Part shown: piece after piece, positions 1 through 62,230 of the stretch | How positions within the stretch are numbered: position 1 is the stretch's first letter | Layout: each line of letters begins with the position of its first letter | Assembly (NCBI RefSeq): GCF_016835505.1 | Contig: NC_053155.1 | Coordinates: 74,532,088 to 74,596,087 of the forward strand | Direction of reading: 5' to 3' | Source of the DNA: Polypterus senegalus | Taxonomy: Eukaryota | Length of the DNA: 64,000 nucleotides | Position numbers and translations under genes: made by a program | Notes under the pieces: generated by a model | The model's database searches: none | Seen by the model: only the letters and a program-made list of their open reading frames with translations | What the model was told of the DNA's origin: nothing

Positions 1-1700
1 TTGGGGTAATACTTCACAAGTGTTTATGACTTTGAATTTTTGTTAGACATAAAACTGTTGATAATTTAAATTTACCAAGTCCTGCCCATTGCAGAAGTTG
101 TAGAATAACAGCATGAAGGAAGTGTGGGATGGGATGAAGATCATTACTGGCTGCAGCTCGAAGCTGGGTGCTACCATCGAGAGAGACGTGGAGAGAGCAA
201 ACCAAATGAACAACTTCTTTAACAGGTTTGACCACCCTAACCCACTCTGACCTCGGAGTACTGCATCCTTCAACCATCCTTCTGCTGATACCAGCATAGG
301 AGAGACATCCCCATCCACAATTACAGCAGCGCAGAGAGCTGAGGAGACTTCGTGCCAGCAAAGCAGCGGGTCCAGATGGAGTATCGCCACGACTGCTGAA
401 GGCCTGTGCACTGGAACTGGGGAGAGTCCCAAGGCTTTGGAAAACATCTTGTATCACCCCAGTACCAAAGGTATCACGTCCTAGTGAGCTGAATGATTTC
501 CGGCCTGCCGCTCTGACATCACATTTGATGAAGACCATGGAGCAGCTGCTGCTTCACCACCTGAGGCCACAAGTCCACCACGCCCTCGATCCTCTGCAGT
601 TCGCATACCGGGAGAAGGTGGGAGCGGAGGATGCCATCATGTATATGTTACACCGATCCCTCTCCCACTTGGACAAAGGCAGTGGTGCTGTAAGAATTAT
701 GTTTTTGGACTTCTCTAGTGCCTTCAACACCATCCAACCTCCGCTCCTTAGGGACAAGCTGACAGAAATGGGAGTAGATTCACACCTGGTGGCATGGATC
801 GTGGACTATCTTACAGATAGACCTCAGTATGTGTGTCTCGGGAACTGCAGGTCTGACATTGTGGTCAGCAACACAGGAGCACCGCAAGGGACTGTACTTT
901 CTCCGGTCCTGTTCAGCCTATATACATCAGACTTCCAATACGACTCGGAGTCCTGCCACGTGCAAAAGTTTGCTGATGATACTGCTATTGTGGGCAGGAG
1001 GAGGAGTATAGGAAGCTAATCAAAAACTTTGTTAAATGGTGTCACTCAAACCACTTACACCTGAACACCAGCAAGACCAAGGAACTGGTAGTGGATTTTA
1101 GGAGGCCCAGGCCCCTCATGGACCCCGTGATCATCAGAGGAGACTGTGTGCAGAGGGTGCAAACCTGTAAATATTTGGGAGTGCAGCTGGATGATAAATT
1201 GGACTGGACTGCCAATACTGATGCACTGTGTAAGAAATGTCTGAGCCGACTATACTTCCTTAGAAGGTTGGCGTCCTTCAACATCTGCAATAAGATGCTG
1301 CAGATGTTCTACCAGACGGTTGTGGCGAGTGCCCTCTTCTACGCGGTGGTGTGCTGGGGAGGCAGCATAATGATGAAGGACGCCTCACACCTGGACAAAC
1401 TTGTTAGGAAGGCAGGCCCTATTGTATAAATGAAGCTGAACAGTTTAACATCTGTGGCAGAGCGACGGGCACTAAGCAAGCTCCTGTCAATCATGGAGAA
1501 TCCACTGCATCCACTGAACAGTGTCATCTCCAGGCAGAGGAGTAGCTTCAGTGACAGACTGCTGTCAATGTTTTGCTCCACTGAAAGACTGAGGAGAGCG
1601 TTCCTCCCCCACACTATGCGACTCTTCAATTCCACCCGGTGGAGTAATTGCTAACATTATTCAAAGTTATTGTCTGCTTTTACATGTATTTTTATTACTC
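1..1700 (+). mobile_element. 5'-truncated non-LTR retrotransposon, reverse transcriptase (RT) region (Rex1/Babar-like), decayed
   Basis: + strand frames translate to RT motifs (LDPLQFAYR, FLDFSSAFNTI, GAPQGTVLSPVLFSLYT, FADDTAIVG). The C-terminal tail ...RLRRAFLPHTMRLFNS resembles fish Rex1-type LINEs. The RT reading frame is split across at least three ORFs by frameshifts, and an AT-rich 3' end lies near 1660-1700. The element probably continues left of the window. Confidence 0.65.
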
Positions 1701-8764: not shown

Positions 8765-9635
8765 AAGGAATTCAGTTAGAACATTAGAACAATCTAGACG
8801 AGAACAGGCCATTCAGCCCAACAAAGCTCACCAGTCCTATCCACTTGTTTCCTCCAAGAAAACATCAAGTCGAGTTTTGAAAGTCCCTAACGTCTTACTG
8901 TCTACCACACTACTTGGTAGCTTATTCCAAGTGTCTGTCTATCTTTGTGTAAAGAAAAACTTCCTAATGTTTGTGCGAAATTTACCCTTAACAAGTTTCC
9001 AACTGTGTCCCCGTGTTCTTGATGAACTCATTTTGAAATAACAGTCTTGATCCACTGTACTAATTCCCTTCATAATTTTAAACACTTCAATCATGTCACC
9101 TCTTAATCTTCTTTTGCTTAAACTGTAAAGGCTCAGCTCTTTTAATCTTTCCTCATAATTCAACCCCTGTAGACCTGGAATCAGCCTAGTCGCTCTTCTC
9201 TGGACCTTTTCTAGTGCTGCTATGTCCTTTTTGTAGCCTGGAGACCAAAACTGCACACAGTACTCAAGATGAGGCCTCACCAGTGCATTTATAAAGGTTG
9301 AGCATATCCTCCTTGGATTTGTACTCCACAGATCGTGCTATATAACCTAACATTCTGTTAGCCTTCTTAATGGCTTCTGAACACTGTTGGGAAGTTGATA
9401 GCTTAGAGTCCACTATGACTCCTAAATCCTTCTCATAAGGTGTACTCTCAATTTTTTCCACAGAATATTTATATATAGTACTGCTACCATCTACAGCTGT
9501 GTATTTTATGGTTTTATCATGAACTGTGCTCTTGAATGACTTGAAAGGCACAATTAAATAAAATGTATTGTTATTACTGGTTTTATTTTCTGTGAAAGTG
9601 CCACTGCTGTGAAACATCCTGCATTGTTCCAGTTC
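8765..9635 (-). mobile_element. CR1-like LINE 3' fragment (second copy, inverted relative to 2900-5020)
   Basis: - strand ORFs read MRPHLEYCVQFWSPGYKKDIAALEKVQRRATRLIPGLQGL...GKFRTNIRKFFFTQR and ...EKDLGVIVDSKLSTSQQCSEAIKKANRMLGYIARS. The 3' tail is the reverse complement of 4960-5015. Confidence 0.75.
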
Positions 9636-9639
9636 CAAA

Positions 9640-18447: not shown

Positions 18448-19984
18448 GTAGGTTTTCAAAGGGTAACTTTTTGATTTATTGTTTATGCTAATTATAGATT
18501 ATAACTTACTTTCATTGATTTAAATTAGTCATTTGTATTTTCTATGAATAAACAAACTTACACTTGCAAATTATTTTCACTAATGTGAGTGACAGATTTT
18601 AAATACCTAAATAATTAAAATTCTCAAATTATCTTAATCCAGTTTAGAGTTGATGGGGGCTGAGGCCTATTGCAGCAGCATCTCAAAACAAATTATGACC
18701 CAGCCCTAATAAATTGTGATATGAAGCAAAGCATGATTTTATAACCAGAAAAGTACTTTTGATTCAAAGTAATACAATGCAAGACACTTGACCATAATTC
18801 ACACCTAGGGAAAATCTGCCATAAAAATAAGGGCTATTTAAAATAAGTATTTAAACCACAATTTTAATGGGGAACATTTCAAAGGCATTACCAAATATGG
18901 TGGTTGTGCATTCATCTGAATGGCATCGTAAGCTATATAAACAAAGCTCAGTAGACAAACAGAATGGATACAAGTAGCCACACCTCTTTGTGAAATGGCA
19001 GTTGAGATGTAGAGAAGCTGCTGCCTAGACTAAACTGCTCAGCTGTGCAGACCACACACAGAACCCAATCAGCTGAAAGCAGTTTTGATCTGATTGGCAG
19101 CTATTTCTAGTCTGACGAGTCACCTGTGGAATTGTTGGTCACCAGCTGCGAACCTGCAACATTTTCTTTTCAAAGACATGCTCAGATATAGCTTCTTATT
19201 GCTTTGAACCAACAAGATTTTTTTTCTGCTGCTGTGCACAAGAGCATCTTTGATGTTTCTGCAAACATTGCACTTCCTAGTGATGTCAGCTAAGCACCCA
19301 GTCAGCTTCCACTCTGTGTACCACATCACTGGACTACCCATAGTGCAAATGCTTTTTGGAAATCAGTTTTTCCATTCTAGTATTCCCCTGTGGGATCACA
19401 GATCTCCATCCACAAATATATAATGTTTGGATTACAAAAACACTCTCAGAAACAGTAAGGTAGCTACAGCTATGCTGAGCACACAGAAGCCAAAAACTGG
19501 AACATGGGATGGTGTGGCTGGTTGAGAACACAGGACAAGTTGGTTATCTGTACCAAACATCAGGAAATGGTTTTCAGTAACCAGTCTTTCAGGTAGCTGG
19601 ATGACTGGTGGTCAATAACTACAGTAGCTTATCCCCACCTTTTATGGATTGTTGCAGTCTTTGATTTTTCACAGAGGTTCCATAGAGTCATTTCCTCTGT
19701 TCCTGAATAATATTGATCTTCACAGGGTAGCAGTGGGGTATTGGTACTAGTGGCATAGGAGGGGATGGAGGGGTCATCTTTTAATTGCATACATGTTTTT
19801 TCTGTATTTTTTCCACTTATTTTCCTAATAAAATATTGCCTAAAAATGGAAAATGTGTATTAAACAGTCAAACCCTATTGGAGAGTTCGTCACTGGATAG
19901 ACAAAATAAGGACAACGTATTTGGCGGGAGGGGTGTTTGAAACCCCCTAGACTCAATTAGACACAGTTCTCCCTTGCCTCAATT

Positions 19985-20944
19985 GAGGTCAGTGTTCACG
20001 ACTCCACCATAAGAAAGAGACTGGGCAAAAACGGCCTGCCTGGCAGATTTCCAAGACGCAAACCACTGTTAAGCAAAAAGAACATTAGGGCTCATCTCAA
20101 TTTTGCTAAGAAACATCTCAATGATTGCCAAGACTTTTGGGAAAATACCTTGTGGACTGATGAGACAAAAGTTGAACTTTTTAGAAGGCAAATGTCCCGT
20201 TACATCTGGCGTAAAAGGAACACAGCATTTCAGAAAAAGAACATCATACCAACAGTAAAACATGGTGGTGGTAGTGTGATGGTCTGGGGTTGTTTTGCTG
20301 CTTCAGGACCTGGAAGGCTTGCTGTGATAGATGGAACCATGAATTCTACTGTCTACCAAAAAATCCAGAAGGAGAATGTCCAGCCATCTGTTCGTCAACT
20401 CAAGCTGAAGCGATCTTGGGTGCTGCAACAGGACAATGACCCAAAACATACCAGCAAATCCACCTCTGAATGGCTGAAGAAAAACAAAATGAAGACTTTG
20501 GAGTGGCGTAGTCAAAGTCCTGACCTGAATCCAATTGAGATGCTATGGCATGACCTTAAAAAGGCGGTTCATGCTAGAAAACCCTCAAATAAAGCTGAAT
20601 TACAACAATTCTGCAAAGATGAGTGGGCCAAAATTCCTCCAGAGCGCTGTAAAAGACTCATTGCAAGTTATTGCAAACGCTTGATTGCAGTTATTGCTGC
20701 TAAGGGTGGCCCAACCAGTTATTAGGTTCAGGGGGCAATTACTTTTTCACACAGGGCCATGTAGGTTTGGATTTTTTTTTCTCCCTAAATAATAAAAACC
20801 ATCATTTAAAAACTGCATTTTGTGTTTACTTGCGTTATATTTGACTAATGGTTAAATGTGTTTGATGATCAGAAGCATTTTGTGTGACAAACATGCAAAA
20901 GAATAAGAAATCAGGAAGGGGGCAAATAGTTTTTCACACCACTG
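19985..20944 (+). mobile_element. Tc1-like transposon, 5'-truncated (DD34E-type transposase C-terminal two thirds plus 3' terminal inverted repeat)
   Basis: Translation reads ...RKPLLSKKNIRAHLNFAKKHL...LWTDETKVELF...VKHGGGSVMVWGCF...LQQDNDPKHTSKSTSEWLKKNKMKTLEWRSQSPDLNPIEMLW...AAKGGPTSY*. The 3' terminal inverted repeat is ggaagggggcaaatagtttttcacaccactg followed by TA (reverse complement tacagtggtgtgaaaaactatttgcccccttcc). The N-terminal DNA-binding region is missing. Confidence 0.75.
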
Positions 20945-20946
20945 TA

Positions 20947-22372
20947 AGTATTCACAGCCTTTGCCATGAAGCTCAGAATTGAGCTCAGGTGCATCTTGTT
21001 TCCCCTGATCATCCTTGAGATGTTTCTGCAGCTTAACTGGAGTCCACCTGTGGTAAATTCAGTTGATTGGACATGATTTGGAAAGGCACACGCCTGTCTA
21101 TATAAGGTCCCACAGTTGACAGTTCATGTCAGAGCACAAACCAAGTATGAAGTCAAAGGAATTGTCTGTAGACCTCTCAAGACCGGATTGTCTCGAATCT
21201 GGGGGAGGTTACAGAAAAATTTCTGCTGCTTTGAAGGTCCCAATGAGCACAGTGGCCTCCATCATCTGTAAGTGGATGAAGTTCGAAACCACCAGGACTC
21301 TTCCTAGAGCTGGCCGGCCATCTAAACTGAGCGATCTGGGGAGAGGGGCCTTAGTCAGGGAGGTGACCAAGAACCTGATGGTCACTCTGTCAGAGCTCCA
21401 GAGGTCCTCTGTGGAGAGAGGAGAACCTTCCAGAAGGACAACCATCTCTGCAGCAATCCACCAATCAGGCCCGTATGGTAGAGTGGCCAGACGGAAGCCA
21501 CTCCTTAGTAAAAGGCACATGGCAGCCCGCCTGGAGTTTGTCAAAAGGCACCTGAAGGACTCTCAGACCATGAGAAACAAAATTCTCTGGTCTGATGAGA
21601 CAAAGATTGAACACTTTGGTGTGAATGCCAGGCATCACGTTTGGAGGAAACCAGGCACCATCCCTACAGAGAAGCATGGTGGTGGCAGCATTATGCTGTG
21701 GGGATGTTTTTCAGCAGCAGGAACTGGGAGACTAGTCAGGATAAAGGGAAATATGACTGCAGCAATGTACAGAGACATCCTGGATGAAAACCTGCTCCAG
21801 AGCGCTCTTGACCTCAGACTGGGGCGACGGTTCATCTTTCAGCAGGTCAACGACCCTAAGCACACAACCAAGATGTCAAAGGAGTGGCTTCAGGACAACT
21901 CTGTGAATGTCCTTGAGTGGCCCAGCCAGAGCCCAGACTTGAATCCGATTGAACATCTCTGGAGAGATCTTAAAATGGCTGTGCACCGACGCTTCCCATC
22001 CAACCTGATGGAGCTTGAGAGATGCTGCAAAGAGGAATGAGTGAAACTGGCCAAGGATAGGTGTGCCAAGCTTGTGGCATCATATTCAAAAAGACTTGAG
22101 GCTGTAATTGCTGCCAAAGGTGTATCAACAAAGTATTGAGCAAAGGCTGTGAATACTTATGTACATGTGATTTCTCAGTTTTTTTTATTTTGAATAAATT
22201 TGCAAAAAAAATCAAGTAAACTTTTTTCACATTGTCATTATGGGGTGTTGTGTGTAGAATTCTGAGGGAAAAAATGAATTTAATCCATTTTGGAATAAGG
22301 CTATAACATAACAAAATGTGGAAAAAGTGATGCGCTGTGAATGCTTTCTGGATACACTGTAGATGGGCATTG
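20947..22372 (+). mobile_element. Tc1-like transposon (fish Tc1 family), near full length with a truncated 5' terminal inverted repeat; transposase disabled
   Basis: The 5' leader ...ctgtctatataaggtcccacagttgacagttcatgtcagagcacaaaccaagtATG is typical of fish Tc1. The ORF 21126-22040 (304 aa) is followed by a stop, then a further ~35 aa (...KLVASYSKRLEAVIAAKGVSTKY). The conserved QQDNDPKH reads QQVNDPKH: GAC to GTC replaces the second catalytic Asp with Val. The 3' end is ...gctgtgaatgctttctggatacactgTA. The 5' end begins agtattcacagcc, so about 15 bp of terminal inverted repeat are missing. Confidence 0.8.
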
Positions 22373-32811: not shown

Positions 32812-35800
32812 ACATTTTAAATTTATTCTCCATCCATCCTCTTCCGCTTATACGAGGTCGGGTCACAGGGGCAGCAGCTTGAGCAGTGATGCCCAGACTT
32901 CCCACTCCCCGGCCACTTCTTCTGGGGGAATCCCAAGTCGTTCCCAAGCCATCCAGGAGACGTAATCCCTCCAGCGTGTCCTGGGTCTTTCTCGAGGCCT
33001 CCTCCTGGTTGGACGTGCCCGGAACACCTCACCAGGGAGACGTCCAGGAGGCATCCTGATCAGATGCTCGAGCCACCTCATTTGACTTCTCTCGATGCGG
33101 AGGAGCAGCAACTTTACTCTGAGCCCCTCCTGGATGACTGAGCTTCTCACCCTATCTTTAAGGGAAAGCCCAGACACCCTGTGGAGGAAACTCATTTCAG
33201 CCACTTGTATTTGCGATCTTGTTCTTTCAGTCACTACCCATATAGCTCATGACCATAGGTGAGGGTAGGAACGTAGATCGACTGGTAAATTGTGAGTTTT
33301 GCCTTACGGCTCAGCTCCTTTTTCACCACGACAGACCGATGCAGAGCTTGCATCACTGCGGACGCCGCACCGATCCACCTGTCAAGCTCACGCTCCATTC
33401 TTCCCTCACTCGTGAACAAGATCCCGAGATACTTGAACTCCTCCACTTGGGCACGATCTCGCTCCCAACCCTGAGAGGGCACTCCACCCTTTTCCGGCTG
33501 AGGACCATGGTCTTGGATTTGGAGGTGCTGATTCCCATCCCATCCGCTTCACACTCAGCTGTGAACCGATCCAGAGAGGGCTGAAGATCACGGCTTGATG
33601 AAGCAAACAGGACATCATCATCTGCATAAAGCAGTGACCCAATCCTGAGTCCACCAAACCGGACCCCCTCAACACCCTGGCTGCGCCCAGAAATTCTGTC
33701 CATAAAAGTTATGAACAGAATCGGTGACAAAGGGCAGCCCTGGTGGAGTCCAACTCTTACTGGAAACGGGTTTGACTTACTGCCGGCAATGCGGACCAAG
33801 CTCTGACACCAGTTGTACAGGGACCGAACAGCTCTTATCAGGGGGCCTGGTACCCCATACTCTCAGAGTTACACAAACCCCTTCCCAGCCCCAGGATTCC
33901 CTGAGGAACACAGTCGAACATCTTTTCCAAGTCCACAAAATGTGCAGACTCATTGGGAAAACTCCCATGCACCCTCCAGGACCCTGCTAAGGGTGTAGAG
34001 CTGGTCCATTGTTCCACGACCAGGACGAAAACCACACTGTTCCTCCTGAATCTGAGGTTCGACTATCTGATGGACCCACCACTCCAGGACCCCCGAATAG
34101 ACTTTGCAGGGAGGCTGAGGAGTGTGATCCCTCTGTAGTTGAAACACACCCTCTGGTCCCCCATCTTAAAGAGGGGGACCACCATCCCGGTCTGCCAGTC
34201 CAGAGGCACTGTCCCCGATGTCCATGCGATGTTGCAGAGGCGTGTCAACCAAGACAGTCCTACAACATCCAGAGCCTTGAGGATCTCATCCACCCATGGG
34301 GCCCTGCCACCAAGGAGTTTTTTGACCACCTCGGTGACCTTAGCCCCAGAGATGGGGGAGCCCACCTCCAAGTCCCCAGGCTCTGCTACCTCATTGGAAG
34401 GCATGTTAGTGGGATTGAGGAGGTCTTTGTAGTACTCCCCCCCACCGACCCACAACGTCATGAGTCGAGGTCAGCAGCGCACCATCCCCACCATATACAG
34501 TGTTGATACTGCACTACTTTTCCCCCTCCTGAGACACCGGATGGTGGACCAGAATCTCCTCGAAGCCGTCTGAAAGTCGTTCTCCATGGCCTCCCCAAAC
34601 TACTCCCATGCCCAAGTTTTTGCCTCAGCAACCACCAAAGCCACATTCCACTTGGCCTGCCAGTACCTATCAGCTGCCTCTAGAGTCCCACAGGACAAAA
34701 GCTTCTTCAGCTTGACGGCATCCCTCGCCACCGGTGTCCACCAATGGATTCGGGGATTGCCGCCACGCCAGGCACCGACCACCTTACAGCCACAGCTCCG
34801 GTCAGCCGCCTCAACAATAGAGGCACGGAACATGGCTCATTCGAACTCAATATCCCCCACCTCCCTCGGGATATGGTCGAAGTTCTGCCGGAGGTGGGAG
34901 TTGAAGCTGCTTCTAAAAGGGGACTCTGCCAGATGTTCCCAGCAGACACTCACAGCACGTTTGGGCCTACCAGACCTGACCGGCATTCAACCCCACCATC
35001 AAAGCCAACTCACCACCAGGTGGTGATCAGTTGACAGCAATGTTCCCTCTAAGGAGTAGCATATAGTGAGCAAAAAACATTGTTTATGAGCGACATTTTG
35101 TTTAAGCCAAAAATTTATGAGCACCAATCTTTGCGCCAAGTACGAGCAATGCCGTCGGAATGAGTGATCGTGCAGGAAGTATGAGCGACGCTCTGAATTC
35201 CCTCACACGCTCAGCTTAGAGGGAACATTGGTTGACAGCTCTGCCCCTCTCTTCACCAGAGTGTCCAAGACATGTGACCGCAAGTCCGATGACACGACCA
35301 CAAAGTCGATCATCGAACTGAGGCCTAGGCTGTCCTGGTGCCAAGTGCACATATGAACACCCCTATGCTTGAACATTGTGTTCGTTATGGACAATCCGTG
35401 ATGAGCACAGAAGTCCAATAACAAAACACCGCTCGGGTTCAGATCGGGGGGCCATTCCTCCCAATCATGCCCTTCCAGGTTTCACTGTCATTGTCCACGT
35501 TAGCATTGAAGTCTCCCAGCAGTACGAGGGAGTCCCCAGAAGGTATACCTTCTAGCACCCCCTCCAGGGACTCCAAAAAGGCTGGGTACTCCAAACTCCA
35601 TTCGGCGCATACACACACACACAACAGTTAGGACCCATCCCCCCATCCGAAGGCGTAGGGAGGCTACCCTCTCGTCCACCAGGGTAAACCCCAATGAGCA
35701 GGTTCCAAGTTGGGGGGTAATAAGTATGCCCACACCCGCTCAGCGCCTCTCACTGGGGACAACTCCAGTGTGGTAGAGAGTCCAGCCCCTCTCAAGGAGA

Positions 35801-47787: not shown

Positions 47788-48001
47788 CTGTACAAGAAAA
47801 GCAAAAAGAACAAATACTGTGCTAAAATACATTAAACATTTTCTTGTTTATATATGACAAAGGAAAATTGTTTAAATCATTTAATTCAACAAATAGTTGT
47901 ACAATTGTCATAGAATGAATATAAAACTAATTAAATATATTCAGTAAAATAATACTACTAAGCAGTAATTTAGTAAATTAAAAAAAAGACAAAAGGCTTA
48001 C

Positions 48002-48120
48002 TTGATGTGGTTTTGTAGCCATTCCTGGATAGACTACGTTGTGCAACTGTCCAGCAGTTTCTAGTGCCTCCACTTGACATTTATCTGCTAACACTGGTAT
48101 ATTTTTTCTTCCTTCATTTT
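48002..48120 (-). CDS. cenpj: cenpj exon
   Basis: Acceptor cataatactttcag and donor CAA|gtaagc. Phase 1 to 0. Encodes (E)NEGRKNIPVLADKCQVEALETAGQLHNVVYPGMATKPHQ. The acceptor lies 133 bp downstream, in gene orientation, of the intact Tc1 insertion. Confidence 0.7.
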
Positions 48121-48129
48121 CTGAAAGTA

Positions 48130-48158
48130 TTATGCATTTTATATATTTAATATATATA

Positions 48159-48234
<76 letters not shown>

Positions 48235-48250
48235 TACATACACACACATA
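48130..48250. repeat. (TA)n/(CA)n compound microsatellite (the Tc1 target site)
   Basis: tatatatttatatatatatatatatatatatatatatatatatatacacacacacacacacacacacatacatacatacacacacatatata. A similar (TA/CA)n stretch resumes at 49483-49540 on the other side of the Tc1. Confidence 0.9.
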
Positions 48251-48252
48251 TA

Positions 48253-49482
48253 TACACTCACCTAAAGGATTATTAGGAACACCTGTTCAGTTTCTCATTA
48301 ATGCAATTATCTAATCAACCAATCAATCACATGGCAGTTGCTTCAATGCATTTAGGGGTGTAGTCCTGGCCAAGACAATCTCCTGAACTCCAAACTGAAT
48401 GTCAGAATGGGAAAGAAAGGGGATTTAAGCAATTTTGAGCGTGGCATGGTTGTTGGTGCCAGACGGGCCGGTCTGAGTATTTCACAATCTGCTCAGTTAC
48501 TGGGATTTTCACACACAACCATTTCTAGGGTTTACAAAGAATGGTGTGAAAAGGGAAAAACATCCAGTATGCGGCAGTCCTGTGGGCTAAAATGCCTTGT
48601 TGATGCTAGAGGTCAGAGGAGAATGGGACGACTGATTCAAGCTGATAGAGGAGCAACTTTGACTGAAATAACCACTCGTTACAACCGAGGTATGCAGCAA
48701 AGCATTTGTGAAGCCACAACACGCACAACCTTGAGGTGGATGGGCTACAACAGCAGAAGACCCCACCAGGTACCACTCATCTCCACTACAAATAGGAATA
48801 AGAGGCTACAATTTGCACGAGCTCACCAAAATTGGACAGTTGAAGACTGGAAAAATGTTGCCTGGTCTGATGAGTCTCGATTTCTGTTGAGACATTCAAA
48901 CGGTAGAGTCAGAATTTGGCGTAAACAGAATGAAAACATGGATCCATCATGCCTTGTTACCACTGTGCAGGCTGGTGGTGGTGGTGTAATGGTGTGGGGG
49001 ATGTTTTCTTGGCACACTTTAGGCCCGTTAGTGCCAATTGGGCATCGTTTAAATGCCACAGGCTACCTGAGCATTGTTTCTGACCATGTCCATCCCTTCA
49101 TGACCACCATGTACCCATCCTCTAATGGCTACTTCCAGCAGGATAATGCACCATGTCACAAAGCTCGAATCATTTCAAATTGGTTTCTTGAACATGACAA
49201 TGAGTTCACTGTACTAAAATGGCCCCCACAGTCACCACATCTCAACCCAATAGAGCATCTTTGGAATGTGGTGGAACGGGAGCTTCGTACCCTGGATGTG
49301 CATCCCACAAATCTCCATCAACTGCAAGATGCTATCCTATCAATATGGGCCAACATTTCTAAAGAATGTTTTCAGCACCTTGTTGAATCAATGCCACATA
49401 GAATTAAGGCAGTTCTGATGGGGAAAGGGGGTCAAACACCGTATTAGTATGGTGTTCCTAATAATCCTTTAGGTGAGTGTAT
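48253..49482 (+). mobile_element. intact Tc1-like DNA transposon: perfect 31-bp terminal inverted repeats, TA target-site duplication, uninterrupted 346-aa transposase ORF
   Basis: 5' repeat TACACTCACCTAAAGGATTATTAGGAACACC (48253-48283). The 3' end 49452-49482 is its exact reverse complement. TA flanks at 48251-52 and 49483-84. Total length 1230 bp. Inserted inside a (TA)n(CA)n microsatellite. Confidence 0.85.
48407..49447 (+). CDS. Tc1-family transposase, full-length open reading frame (346 aa)
   Basis: MGKKGDLSNFERGMVVGARRAGLSISQSAQLLGFSHTTISRVYKEWCEK... (paired helix-turn-helix) ... KNVAWSDESRFLL (first D) ... FQQDNAPCHKA (second D) ... PQSPHLNPIEHLW (E) ... VLMGKGGQTPY*. No stops or frameshifts. 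By manual count 36 residues separate the second D and the E, against 34 in Sleeping Beauty. Confidence 0.85.
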   Translation: MGKKGDLSNFERGMVVGARRAGLSISQSAQLLGFSHTTISRVYKEWCEKGKTSSMRQSCGLKCLVDARGQRRMGRLIQADRGATLTEITTRYNRGMQQSICEATTRTTLRWMGYNSRRPHQVPLISTTNRNKRLQFARAHQNWTVEDWKNVAWSDESRFLLRHSNGRVRIWRKQNENMDPSCLVTTVQAGGGGVMVWGMFSWHTLGPLVPIGHRLNATGYLSIVSDHVHPFMTTMYPSSNGYFQQDNAPCHKARIISNWFLEHDNEFTVLKWPPQSPHLNPIEHLWNVVERELRTLDVHPTNLHQLQDAILSIWANISKECFQHLVESMPHRIKAVLMGKGGQTPY

Positions 49483-50669
49483 ATAGATATATATACACAT
49501 ACATACATATATACACACACACACACGTATGGTATATACAGTGAATCATTAATATTCGCAGGAGTAACATTGCAAGAAAAAGGTGCAACAATCAAAGATG
49601 CAAATGTTAACAGAAATTATGGGAAACAGAAGGTTAGGTTTCCACAACCACCAAAAACTAATATTTTGCTAGCGATTGCTCAAAAGACCACTTTTCCTGC
49701 ATGGATTTCTTTATAACAAAATATTTCTTATAATGTGCATTTTTCAAAATATCCCGTAAAAGGCAGTGCACAAAATAAAATTGGTATCATGCAAAACATT
49801 TTTTCTTGCTAGTCTTTCTCTGAAATTCTGCCAAAAAGAAAAAAAAAACTTTTAGTTACTAATATTGTAAGACACCAAGACTGGCAAGGTCTCAACATCA
49901 CCTCTGACACTCTCTCCTTAACTCCTGTCTACAAATTAGAAGGATTCACATGCATTTCACAACCATTATCATGGCTAAAAATGTAAGCAAATAGAGTTTT
50001 CTGTGTGGTCCCTCTATTTTACAGTCTATAATTTATATCTGAAATGTGCCATCATTAATCAAGTACACTATAAATTCAGCAGGTTTTTGATGCAATAGTT
50101 ACAACATTCTCCACTTACCTTAGACTCGTTATTTGTGAATACTTTTAACTCAGGAAATTATTGAATCATCTATGAAAGTGCAAACCAGCAAATCCCACAA
50201 AGTTCTGAGATCACTTATTACCACAAACCTTCTAATCCCTGTTTCAATCTTATAATATTTATTGCAATAGCATACAGCTTTGTAGACCCACTGACAGACC
50301 ACTGTGCTCTTCTGCTCGAAATGCTGTTTGCCTGTGCTGTGGTTCATGGCAGTGTGCCTAGAATGTGGACCTAGAGTACTGGGACAAGTATTTGATACTG
50401 TAAGAATGTAGTGTTTTACAAACAGAAACTGTGCAAATTTACTAATATAGATTTTGTGCAAGTACCGTATGGTGTTATTGTTGCATGCTAGTTTGCAATT
50501 TAACTTTACAGTGTTTGTAAAGTGTTTATAAGTGTAGTGTGATTAACAAGAATAAGCTGAAATGAATCATGCCAGCAGCCTTGGAAAGTTTCATTTTCAC
50601 TGTTTTTGTAACAGAAACAGAACAAAACACACAATTATCTTATACTATAATGTGCAAAGGAGTACATAC

Positions 50670-54938: not shown

Positions 54939-55257
54939 AGATAGCCAGGTTGTATACATTTGTAAATTTTATAACAGTGCCACTAGTGGGTTCAAATGGT
55001 CCATCACTTTAAAAACATATTTAAAAAATTATAGGCACAATAACAATGGATGTATCATGTTTTTACTACCTTATTCAAATTTTAGGTATTCATTAAATGT
55101 ATTAAAAGATAAGGTACTCTGAATTTGAAATATGCACACTATACAAACATTTCAATTATATACCGGACTTTGTAGCCAGGAAAAGTCTTCACCATCATTT
55201 CTCAGATTTTATTACATTATGATACAGTAGTGTATTTATAAAAACATTCTTTCTAAC

Positions 55258-56824
55258 CTGGACTTTGCTGGGATTCTGTGCTGGTCACAGTATTTTGAAC
55301 TACTGCAGGCTTGTTCTTAGGCTTCAGAGATGGAAAAAGCTTCACCATTAATTCTGAGGCTGGCTGCTGTTCTATTCTGTTATCAAGAAAAGTATCTCCT
55401 GATTTGCGGTCACCAGTCTTTCCATTTGCCACCTTTCTTTTCATCTCTTTATTTGCTACAGTTCGGTCAATTGCAGTACAATGAATATGCAAGCGATCAA
55501 CAACTTCATCATTCCCAGCAGTTTCTAGATGACCATGTTTGTCAAACACCTCCAGATCATTCCAGGTATCATCATCATCAAAGGTCAAGGGATCTATATT
55601 GCCTGGCTGTAGTTTACATTTCTTTTCAATAACAGTCGATTCATCACTTGTATATCCAACCTCATCCACATGCACACCATCACTTTCATCTTCACTCTCT
55701 TTGGTGTGATCTTGGTAAGCGGTTTTATCATAGAGGTTGATATGTTGACATGGAGTAATCTCAGATGTCAATACTCCTTGACTTATGCAGGGTTGCAAAG
55801 CTGTATCATCATCCTCCACCTCTGAATCTGAAATATCCTGACAAGATTCAGAACACCTATTTGCTCCTTCTTGGTCATTTGTAAAGCTTGCACTTTTTTT
55901 TGAAATGCAATTTAAAATAATAGCCTTGTTGCTGGCTACATGTGTTCTTTTGCAGTCTAGGGTTTCTTGTATTATTTGGGATAAAGTCTGCACTTTTCCA
56001 TCTCTTGTAAATGGGCTGATTTTGGCAGTTTGCTGATGTTGTTTTAAGGTCTTAATGGGTGTAGAAGACAATCTATGCCCTGTCTGGCCCTGCACATCCA
56101 AATGCAATACCTTTTGCATGAAAGAGGAGTTGCTTGAAAAGGATATTTCATCTGCAGCTTGCTCCAACAGCTCAAATTCATTCAATTCAAGATTCTCTTT
56201 TTCTTTTTCTTCATCCCACTTTTCAATCTTCTTTTGAAAGGATAAATCAAATGAATACTCCTGTCCAGATGGTGGAACATTTCTTGCAGTTCTCGAAATG
56301 CTGTACTGTTTATTTCTTTCATAAGTCATTGGGTTTAAACTAGCAGATGAATGCATTTTAGCACTTATAGAATCACTAACTTTAGAAACCTCCTCACTAC
56401 TCCAATTAGCTTTTACAGGAAATGGTTTCACTAGTGTTTTTTCCACAGGTTTTACTTGTATTTTTGGTTCAGTTAACAGTTTGGGTGGAACTTCAGCAGT
56501 GTTTTCTCCACTTTGGTGCCCAAAACTGTTAGTCTCTTGTATATGGTTCATTTTGCAGAGACTGTGAGTATCTGCCTTTTTTTGCAGTCCAATATCTTTA
56601 CCAGAGAGATTTTTTTTCTTTAGCACAGATGTTTTGCGCTGTACTTGTGGCTTGTTTATCTTTGATACAGATTTTGCCTGTGCAACCTTTTCAGCGTTAA
56701 TAGGTTGTGTTTCCTTACAAGGTGGTTTAACTGGAAAACTACGGCTTGTGAATCTTGCTAAACCTTCCCCACGCTTCAGAAATGGTCTTTTAGTGTTGCC
56801 TTTAACTTCAGCTTTAGCAGACAT
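55258..56824 (-). CDS. cenpj: cenpj large central exon (~522 codons, low-complexity Ser/Lys/Glu-rich)
   Basis: Acceptor ctctttttatttttcag|ATG at 56825/56824 and donor CCAG|gttaga at 55258/55257. Phase 0 to 1. The 1567-nt open frame reads MSAKAEVKGNTKRPFLKRGEGLARF...VTSTESQQSP(E). Human CENPJ likewise has one very large central exon followed by ten small ones. The initial M is not a start codon; the exon is internal. Confidence 0.7.
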
Positions 56825-60809: not shown

Positions 60810-62230
60810 TTTAAATTCTTATTCTGAAATATAATTTATCAGATCCTGCCAAGTTTTGAAAAGGTTTTGTTCAGATCTTCCAAGTGTGAATTTGATTTTT
60901 TCCAATTTTAGATAATATAGAACATCAGTTATCCACGGACATAAAAGAGGGGAGTTAGGATTCTTCCAGTTAAGCAAGATAACTCCACATGTCGATAGTG
61001 TAGTAAAGGCAATTACAGTTTGTTCGTCCTTCTCCACTTTAAGCCCATCTGGATGTACACCAAGCACAGCTTTTAGTGGATTAGGAGGGATTATGACACC
61101 AAGGCTGCCTGAAAGACATTTAAAGATTTTTTGTCCAAAGTGATGTTAATTTGGCGCAGGCCCAAAACATGTGGCCCAGTGAGGCTGGAACTTGATTGCA
61201 ACGTTCGCAGGTTGGATCTTGCCCAAGAACCAATTTGGAAAATTTTAAACGAGAGAGATGCGGTCGATATATAAATTTAAATTGAATAATTGTATGCTTT
61301 ACGCATATGGAGCTCGAGTGAATTCTGTGCATTGCTACCTTACATTCCTTTTCTGAGATGTTGAGTGAGAGATCCTTTTCCCACTGTTCTCTGGGATCTT
61401 TGAAAGGAAGCGACATTAAAATGTTTTTATATATTAAAGAAATGCTGTTTGAGTCCTCAAGACTGATCAATATATCTTCCAGTATATAGGCAGGTGGGAG
61501 GCGAGGTAAATTGGGTAGGTTTTGTTTAACAAAGTTTCTAATTTGAAGGTAGTGAAAGAAATGTGTTGCTGGAAAGTTAAACATGGAGTATAATTGTTCG
61601 TAGGATGCAAAGACATTGTCTATGTACAGAACTCTAAGTGATTTAATACCGGATGTTTTCCAGACATTAAAAACTGCATATATTTGAGAGGGTGGAAAAA
61701 GGTGGTTCTCGTGCAGATGTGCCACAAATAAAAGCTTCTCTATCATAAAATGCTTCCTACATTGGTTCCATTTTCTGAGTGAGTGAAGCACTATTGTGTT
61801 GTTAGTATATCGGCAATGACTTGTGCTTATTGGGGTACAGAGTAAGGAATATAAACAAGTACTGCAAGACTTTATTTCTATTGTGGACCAAGCTTGTGTT
61901 TGCTCGCCTATGTGTGTCAATGTACAGGTTTTTATAGTTTGTATATGCACCACACAGTAATAAAATTGAAAGTTAGGTTAAGCCATGCCACTTTCTTCCT
62001 TAGGTCTTTGTACGGTCACCTTTTGGATAAAAGGATGTTTTGAATTCCAAATAAATGAGGTTATGGTTGAATCTAATTTCTTAAAAAAGTATTTATTGAT
62101 ATATTTTGGAATTTTTTGAAATAGAAAGAGAAGCTTAGGAAGGATATTCATCTTGACTATTTTATTTCTTCTAGCTAAAGTTAAATGAAGGGTAGACCAT
62201 AAAATGATTTTGTACGACACAAAAATGGAT
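60810..62230 (-). mobile_element. L1/Tx1-like LINE ORF2 3' fragment (RT thumb plus Cys-rich C-terminal domain)
   Basis: - strand ORFs read ...KMNILPKLLFLFQKIPKYINKYFFKKLDSTITSFIWNSKHPFIQKVTVQRPKEESGMA (the L1 RT motif), then ...FIYRPHLSRLKFSKLVLGQDPTCERCNQVPASLGHMFWACAKLTSLW (the L1 C-terminal CxC...HxxxC domain), then ...WKNPNSPLLCPWITDVLYYLKLEKIKF. Confidence 0.7.

Follow-up and report, generated by a model that had tools for sequence, protein, structure and literature searches.

We identified a 1225-bp DNA transposon at 48255-49479 of a 64,000-nucleotide stretch of the Polypterus senegalus genome (contig NC_053155.1 of RefSeq assembly GCF_016835505.1, positions 74,532,088 to 74,596,087 of the forward strand). 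This stretch is hereafter called the window, and all coordinates refer to it. The element is almost certainly a genomic copy of DD36E/Incomer (IC), a Tc1/mariner cut-and-paste transposon, and belongs to cluster B, a group whose horizontal spread has taken in ray-finned fishes and frogs. We hold with high confidence that the locus as a whole is best explained by an Incomer copy that inserted into an intron of the gene cenpj and has since decayed neutrally. The copy retains an intact structure while its sequence drifts neutrally. The Incomer family has already been published and is well characterised; the copy is an ordinary one and does not represent a new lineage.

Assignment to the DD36E/Incomer family

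Incomer was described by Sang et al. (2019, Mob DNA 10:45; PMC6875036). The family is defined by elements of about 1.2 kb with one open reading frame (ORF) of about 346 amino acids, a DD36E catalytic triad, terminal inverted repeats (TIRs) of 22-32 bp that start from CACTC, and TA duplications (PMC6875036). Its typical intact member is 1225 bp long, with a 346-amino acid ORF and 29-bp TIRs (PMC6875036). The element in the window has a length of 1225 bp, an ORF of 346 amino acids, a spacing of 36 residues, 29-bp CACTC TIRs and a TA on either side, and in each of these features it is like the published elements IC_Paki, IC_Caau, IC_Eslu and IC_Nofu. Its TIR is identical to the consensus termini (TA)CACTCACCTAAAGGATTATTAGGAACACC of Esox lucius, Carassius auratus, Paramormyrops kingsleyae and Nothobranchius furzeri (PMC6875036 supplement).

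Over the full length of about 1225 bp we counted 26 differences from IC_Paki, 27 from IC_Caau and 34 from IC_Nofu, so that the DNA is about 98% identical to the Paramormyrops (IC_Paki) and Carassius (IC_Caau) elements. On this nucleotide identity to published consensus elements, placement in the Incomer clade appears unambiguous. The protein told the same story: its best matches, in clusters of 155 and 111 members, were 94-95% identical and came from Cyprinus carpio, Paramormyrops, Esox lucius, Leuciscus, Xenopus tropicalis and P. senegalus itself, and identity to consensus-like proteins was 95-96%. Where the copy departs from the Incomer consensus, it does so by 25 substitutions, a 4-bp CAAT duplication and 13 private amino-acid changes, which are taken up below. 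In addition, polypterid copies carry G219, whereas the consensus of carp, pike and mormyrid has A219.

Transposase and the 36-residue spacing

The initial annotation of this locus had proposed an uninterrupted 346-amino acid transposase ORF with a D..D..E triad, a manually counted spacing of 36 residues, and hence a DD36E-type rather than a DD34E lineage. All three proposals held up, and the lineage proved to be the published Incomer. The single ORF at 48407-49447 on the plus strand is uninterrupted and contains the Pfam domains HTH_23, HTH_Tnp_Tc3_2 (3.8e-15) and DDE_3 (1.4e-13). The first two reflect the N-terminal DNA-binding architecture expected of the family, but its motifs have suffered damage here: the GRPR-like motif reads GLK where the family has GRK, and the putative nuclear-localisation region lacks two basic residues. 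The catalytic triad is intact, with D155 (48869-71, WSDES), D246 (49142-44, QQDNAPCH) and E283 (49253-55, NPIEHLW), and 36 residues lie between D246 and E283.

The only match to a solved structure was the catalytic domain of the Sleeping Beauty transposase SB100X (PDB 5CR4, E = 2e-41, HMMER), and in that alignment the triad motifs fall on wsDet, DNdpkh and npiEnlw of SB100X. Between the second D and the E, our protein has an insertion of two residues relative to SB100X (WFLEHDNE versus WL--KDNK). The same two-residue insertion appeared when the protein was aligned by MAFFT with a DD34E Tc1 relic in the window (21126-22037), and 101 of the 106 homologues in which both D and E were aligned have a spacing of 36. 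We therefore give practically no credence to the view that this is a canonical DD34E Tc1 element whose longer spacing arose from a counting or alignment artefact. What speaks for that view is general similarity only, with 31% identity to full-length Sleeping Beauty and 27% to the DD34E relic in the window; the insertion, in contrast, is clean in both alignments, and the homologues share the longer spacing. Membership in DD34E/Tc1 in the strict sense, which has a 34-residue spacing, was accordingly rejected.

Comparison with Sleeping Beauty nonetheless places the protein in a familiar framework. Both have a paired-like helix-turn-helix (HTH) region, a GRPR-like motif, a basic linker and an RNase-H-like DDE domain, the first two catalytic aspartates are about 90 residues apart in each, and cut-and-paste transposition at TA is presumably common to the two. 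They differ in the low overall identity and in the spacing (34 versus 36), and also in their ends: Sleeping Beauty has long inverted repeat/direct repeat (IR/DR) structures, whereas the Incomer copy has short, simple 29-bp TIRs.

We noted three other Tc1-like transposase relics in the window, 28-34% identical to the Incomer protein, at 19979-20722 (+), 21126-22136 (+) and 54514-53585 (-). In the ORF at 20150-20725 the spacing is that of canonical DD34E elements and the motifs resemble those of Sleeping Beauty (QQDNDPKH...SPDLNPIE), and the relic at 54514-53585 sits in a different cenpj intron from the Incomer copy. Apart from these three distant relics of DD34E type, a search of the 64-kb window for other Incomer copies or fragments found none.

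Boundaries and insertion site

A repeat finder returned a perfect inverted repeat with arms of 35 nucleotides at 48249-48283 and 49451-49485 (100% complementary). The outer 6 nucleotides of each arm are palindromic TATATA belonging to the flanking microsatellite and not to the element. The element-specific TIR core is the 29-nucleotide sequence CACTCACCTAAAGGATTATTAGGAACACC, which occurs at two places in the 64-kb window, in inverted orientation, against 0 expected by chance. We set the left edge at 48255 by the published family boundary, at which the TIR starts with CACTC. The perfect TIRs of the initial annotation thus stand, but its extent (48253-49482, 1230 bp, with 31-bp TIRs) included the TA duplications and one extra base. 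Features of the element and its immediate surroundings are collected in Table 1.

Table 1. Coordinates of the Incomer copy, its parts and flanking features in the window
Feature	Position	Strand	Basis or remark
Putative cenpj exon, unconfirmed	48002..48120	-	acceptor tttcag/ and donor /gtaagc present
Microsatellite, left part, (TA)n then (AC)n	48140..48252	.	Tandem Repeats Finder (TRF)
TA, left copy of target-site duplication	48253..48254	.	sequence; TA expected anyway in TA-repeat flank
Left TIR, 29 bp, CACTCACCTAAAGGATTATTAGGAACACC	48255..48283	+	perfect match to right TIR
5' untranslated region of element, with private 4-bp CAAT duplication (48320-48323) and three substitutions	48284..48406	+	alignment with IC_Caau, IC_Paki, IC_Nofu
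Transposase ORF, 346 amino acids; N-terminal paired-like HTH domain, then DD36E catalytic domain	48407..49447	+	
Right TIR, 29 bp, beginning 3 nucleotides past the stop codon	49451..49479	-	
TA, right copy of target-site duplication	49480..49481	.	sequence
TA/AC microsatellite, right part	49480..49525	.	TRF

The element lies inside a microsatellite and has TA on both flanks, as had been proposed. Reading 47900-49800, we found a compound microsatellite broken by a unique 1.2-kb segment, with TRF reporting (TA)33 at 48140-48204, (AC)22 (22.5 units of AC) at 48204-48248, and TA/ACAT repeats at 49480-49525. Because the surroundings are a TA-rich microsatellite, the TA dinucleotides bordering the element (48253-54 and 49480-81) are weak evidence of a target-site duplication and do not count as independent of their setting.

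By the known biology of the family, an Incomer transposase would have bound the 29-bp TIRs and excised the element, which would then have reinserted at a TA inside the (TA)n(AC)n microsatellite, antisense in the cenpj intron, with duplication of the TA. Comparison with the consensus sequences shows neutral drift since then, with about 2% of nucleotides changed with a bias towards CpG, 4 bp duplicated in the 5' untranslated region and 13 amino acids replaced.

Divergence and neutral decay

As the only reference for nucleotide divergence we took the majority consensus of three published elements from different species (IC_Paki, IC_Caau and IC_Nofu). Against it the copy has 25 substitutions (2.0%), comprising 16 transitions and 9 transversions, in addition to the private CAAT duplication. 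Five of the 25 substitutions changed CpG to TpG or CpA, lowering the CpG count from 23 to 18. Changes thus affected 5 of 46 CpG nucleotides (11%) and 20 of about 1179 others (1.7%), a difference of about sixfold. Such CpG-biased change marks a sequence that has resided in a methylated germline.

The 22 substitutions within the ORF divide into 14 nonsynonymous and 8 synonymous changes. When 22 random substitutions were placed on the consensus ORF in a neutral simulation, 15.8 +/- 2.1 were nonsynonymous (P(<=14) = 0.26), and the ORF stayed open in 33% of the simulated sequences. The probability that 25 substitutions spare both TIRs is likewise considerable, at 0.30. With an open ORF and untouched TIRs both this readily expected at the observed divergence, intactness is weak evidence of youth or activity. 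If a rate of 1-3 x 10^-9 substitutions per site per year is assumed, a divergence of 2% corresponds to roughly 7-20 million years.

Private amino-acid changes

Relative to the consensus of seven P. senegalus copies together with the copy in the window, the transposase has 13 private changes: R36H, R61L, R82G, R111W, R121Q, K131N, D240N, D278H, D287N, A295T, R331H, K338M and A339G. Six of these (R121, K131, D240, D278, D287 and K338) fall at positions where the majority residue is present in 89-94% of homologues, counted over 104-136 sequences. R61L (48587-89) alters the GRPR-like motif; in the alignment R61 falls on the arginine that follows the invariant G of this motif (GRR/GRP) in Sleeping Beauty and in the Tc1 relic of the window. 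R121Q and K131N remove two basic residues from a putative nuclear-localisation region, a basic stretch that aligns with what we take to be the bipartite nuclear-localisation signal of Sleeping Beauty. D278H, a non-CpG transversion (GAT>CAT at 49238), lies within the near-invariant SPDLNPIE, five residues before the catalytic E.

No homologue has more than three of the 13 changes, and those that are shared are mostly recurrent CpG changes. The idea that the 13 changes mark an amplifying sub-lineage was rejected on this count. Elsewhere, D278H occurs without the other private changes of the window copy, except in the distant homologue P0055 (61% identical), which also has T295. D278H is thus either recurrent or tolerated.

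Mobility of the copy

The copy had initially been annotated as recent and possibly still mobile. The structural part of that claim stands, in that ORF, triad and TIRs are intact, but the divergence of 2%, the 13 private changes, the neutral pattern and the loss of CpG sites weaken the rest. We consider it unlikely that this is a very recent, autonomous copy, still mobile by means of a functional transposase. Such a reading can draw on the open 346-amino acid ORF, on the intact D155, D246 and E283, and on the perfect TIRs between TA flanks; the copy counts as intact under the operational definition of Sang et al., who found intact Incomer copies numbering in the hundreds in some fishes and considered the family possibly active in fish (PMC6875036). 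Set against it are the nucleotide divergence from consensus together with the 4-bp duplication, and 13 private replacements, most of which affect basic or acidic residues at conserved positions, the GRPR-like motif among them. The ratio of nonsynonymous to synonymous changes is not distinguishable from neutral, CpG sites were lost preferentially, and at such divergence neither an open ORF (33%) nor untouched TIRs (30%) would stand out. An intact ORF and perfect TIRs at 2% divergence are not by themselves evidence of activity. We think it probable that the transposase encoded by the copy is either impaired or dead. A functional Incomer transposase from another locus, if the genome has one, could nevertheless mobilise the copy in trans through its perfect TIRs.

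Several points weigh against neutral decay of an impaired copy. The intact catalytic triad, ORF and both TIRs would be compatible with activity, and the effect of the 13 replacements on the transposase is a prediction only. D278H occurs in 6 of 128 homologues, one of them a P. senegalus copy (P0259), and may be tolerated. Moreover, some of the 8 synonymous differences and of the 3 in the untranslated region could be characteristic of a polypterid subfamily instead of reflecting decay after insertion, in which case the copy could be somewhat younger than 2% implies.

That the ORF belongs to a domesticated, host-co-opted transposase gene and not to a transposon has a negligible probability in our view. 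The length of the open ORF is what favours it, but the TIRs are complete and flanked by TA, the element is multi-copy with near-identical copies in unrelated fishes, the substitution pattern is neutral, and the location is intronic and antisense. We therefore retain the interpretation of a decaying Incomer copy. In annotation the element is best masked and given the label DD36E/Incomer, and treated neither as a gene nor as a new Tc1 lineage; beyond correct annotation it has little consequence. Incomer was published in 2019, and its diagnostic 36-residue spacing was here found again independently, from sequence alone.

Incomer copies in polypterids

Seven full-length Incomer copies in P. senegalus are annotated as 'TCB1 transposase', so that polypterid Incomer proteins are already in GenBank under this generic name. 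These copies ('TCB1 transposase, partial', for example MBN3288932.1, KAG2466869.1 and KAG2460309.1) are of the same subfamily and the same 346-amino acid length as the protein in the window. Compared as proteins only, they represent other insertions, and no exact match to the protein in the window is recorded. N165, G219 and P345 are common to the window transposase and all seven copies; as N165 and P345 are also present in IC_Paki, and all three in IC_Nofu, they are not confined to polypterids. Each of the seven copies is 1.4-4.3% diverged in protein from their own consensus, and the six unfused ones have 5-15 substitutions each relative to the consensus. In P0246 the C-terminal tail is in addition frameshifted, and the annotation of P0259 is chimeric.

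A219G is the sole difference between the consensus of the seven copies plus the window copy and the cross-species consensus. In a direct comparison, the polypterid and Paramormyrops kingsleyae Incomer proteins were almost identical, differing by E48A and A219G. Polypterids are the deepest branch of the ray-finned fishes. A one-residue difference between the polypterid consensus and that of carp, mormyrid and killifish fits a recent horizontal transfer, and Paramormyrops would be a plausible exchange partner because African mormyrids such as this one co-occur with polypterids in their rivers and have intact copies in the hundreds. We therefore raise, tentatively and with considerable doubt, a geologically recent horizontal transfer of Incomer into polypterids, under which the copy may be trans-mobilisable and polymorphic in populations. 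A search of IMG/VR viral contigs for Incomer, as a possible transfer vector, gave no match.

Polypteriformes are absent from Table S1 of the 2019 Incomer survey (PMC6875036), and our literature search found no paper reporting Incomer in polypterids. They add one host order to the horizontal transfer of Incomer that had been documented before, and this is the only modestly new point here.

The cenpj locus and a putative exon

On the minus strand lies cenpj, and the element is antisense within one of its introns, in agreement with the initial annotation; both CENPJ protein matches and the exon layout obtained by tblastn support this position. A 523-amino acid ORF at 55253-56824 (-) matches CENPJ including its tubulin-binding region (PF25779), with the best match in Acipenser sinensis (41%). 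Searches by tblastn with three CENPJ proteins placed minus-strand exons at 56791-55289, 53086-52922, 52407-52219 and 52106-51933, and further exons at 47357-47202, 47128-47039, 46595-46476 and 41394-41209.

An exon at 48002-48120 had also been assigned to cenpj. The distance between its upstream end at 48120 and the element is 133-135 nucleotides, as given, but the exon itself fared less well. Its splice motifs are good, yet tblastn with the CENPJ proteins of Acipenser, Oryzias and Nematolebias gave no match to it, and its frame is incompatible with the conserved neighbours. Its 119 nucleotides are open in a single frame, the one that requires a base from the preceding exon (phase 1), whereas the conserved flanking exons join in phase 0/0 (52106-51933 ends in AAA CAG/GT and 47357-47202 starts in phase 0). 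This mismatch implies either that a further exon, 3n+1 nucleotides in length, lies undetected between 51933 and 48120, or that 48002-48120 is not constitutive. The undetected exon is plausible, since this CENPJ linker, to judge from the human protein, is long and poorly conserved in other vertebrates.

Splicing potential of the insertion

Most likely the element is without effect on cenpj. We regard it as very improbable that the insertion matters functionally for the gene, whether by altering the splicing of the nearby exon or by antisense exonisation. Some signals could serve such an effect. Read in the sense direction of cenpj, the left TIR gives TAG/GTGAGT, a near-consensus 5' splice site whose last exon base would be 48262; upstream of it the element has three acceptor-like sites (49414, 48785 and 48605), and a (TG)n tract is found some 85-130 nucleotides upstream of the putative acceptor. 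However, the end of the element is 133-135 nucleotides from that acceptor, which is outside the usual zone of branch point and polypyrimidine tract; the exon is itself putative and out of frame with its conserved neighbours; and intronic Tc1-like insertions are commonplace, another intron of cenpj having a Tc1 relic at 54514-53585. The donor- and acceptor-like sites are thus a potential for exonisation, as predicted from motifs, and not evidence of it.

Read outward, the TIR terminus ends at both sides of the element in CCTTTAG/GTGAGTG, a near-consensus donor (48255-48268 on the minus strand; 49466-49479 on the plus strand). Any intronic Incomer insertion would thereby present a strong donor-like site on both strands. 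The segment 48204-48250, read on the cenpj-sense strand, runs as (TG)n and then passes into (TA)n. In other genes, for example at CFTR exon 9, TDP-43 binds TG repeats near acceptors.

Other repeats in the window

Upstream of the large cenpj exon, a 277-amino acid ORF at 61120-61953 (-) ends in a motif of the type C..C...H..W.C (CERCNQVPASLGHMFWAC) and resembles the C-terminal part of ORF2 of a long interspersed element (LINE). Reverse-transcriptase fragments of non-long-terminal-repeat retrotransposons are present at 525-1429 (+), 8939-9638 (-) and 32863-34506 (both strands). Within the first of these positions, the LINE reverse-transcriptase ORF 525-1016 marks the host as a polypterid: its identity to proteins of Erpetoichthys calabaricus is 88-91%, with the next species at 81%.

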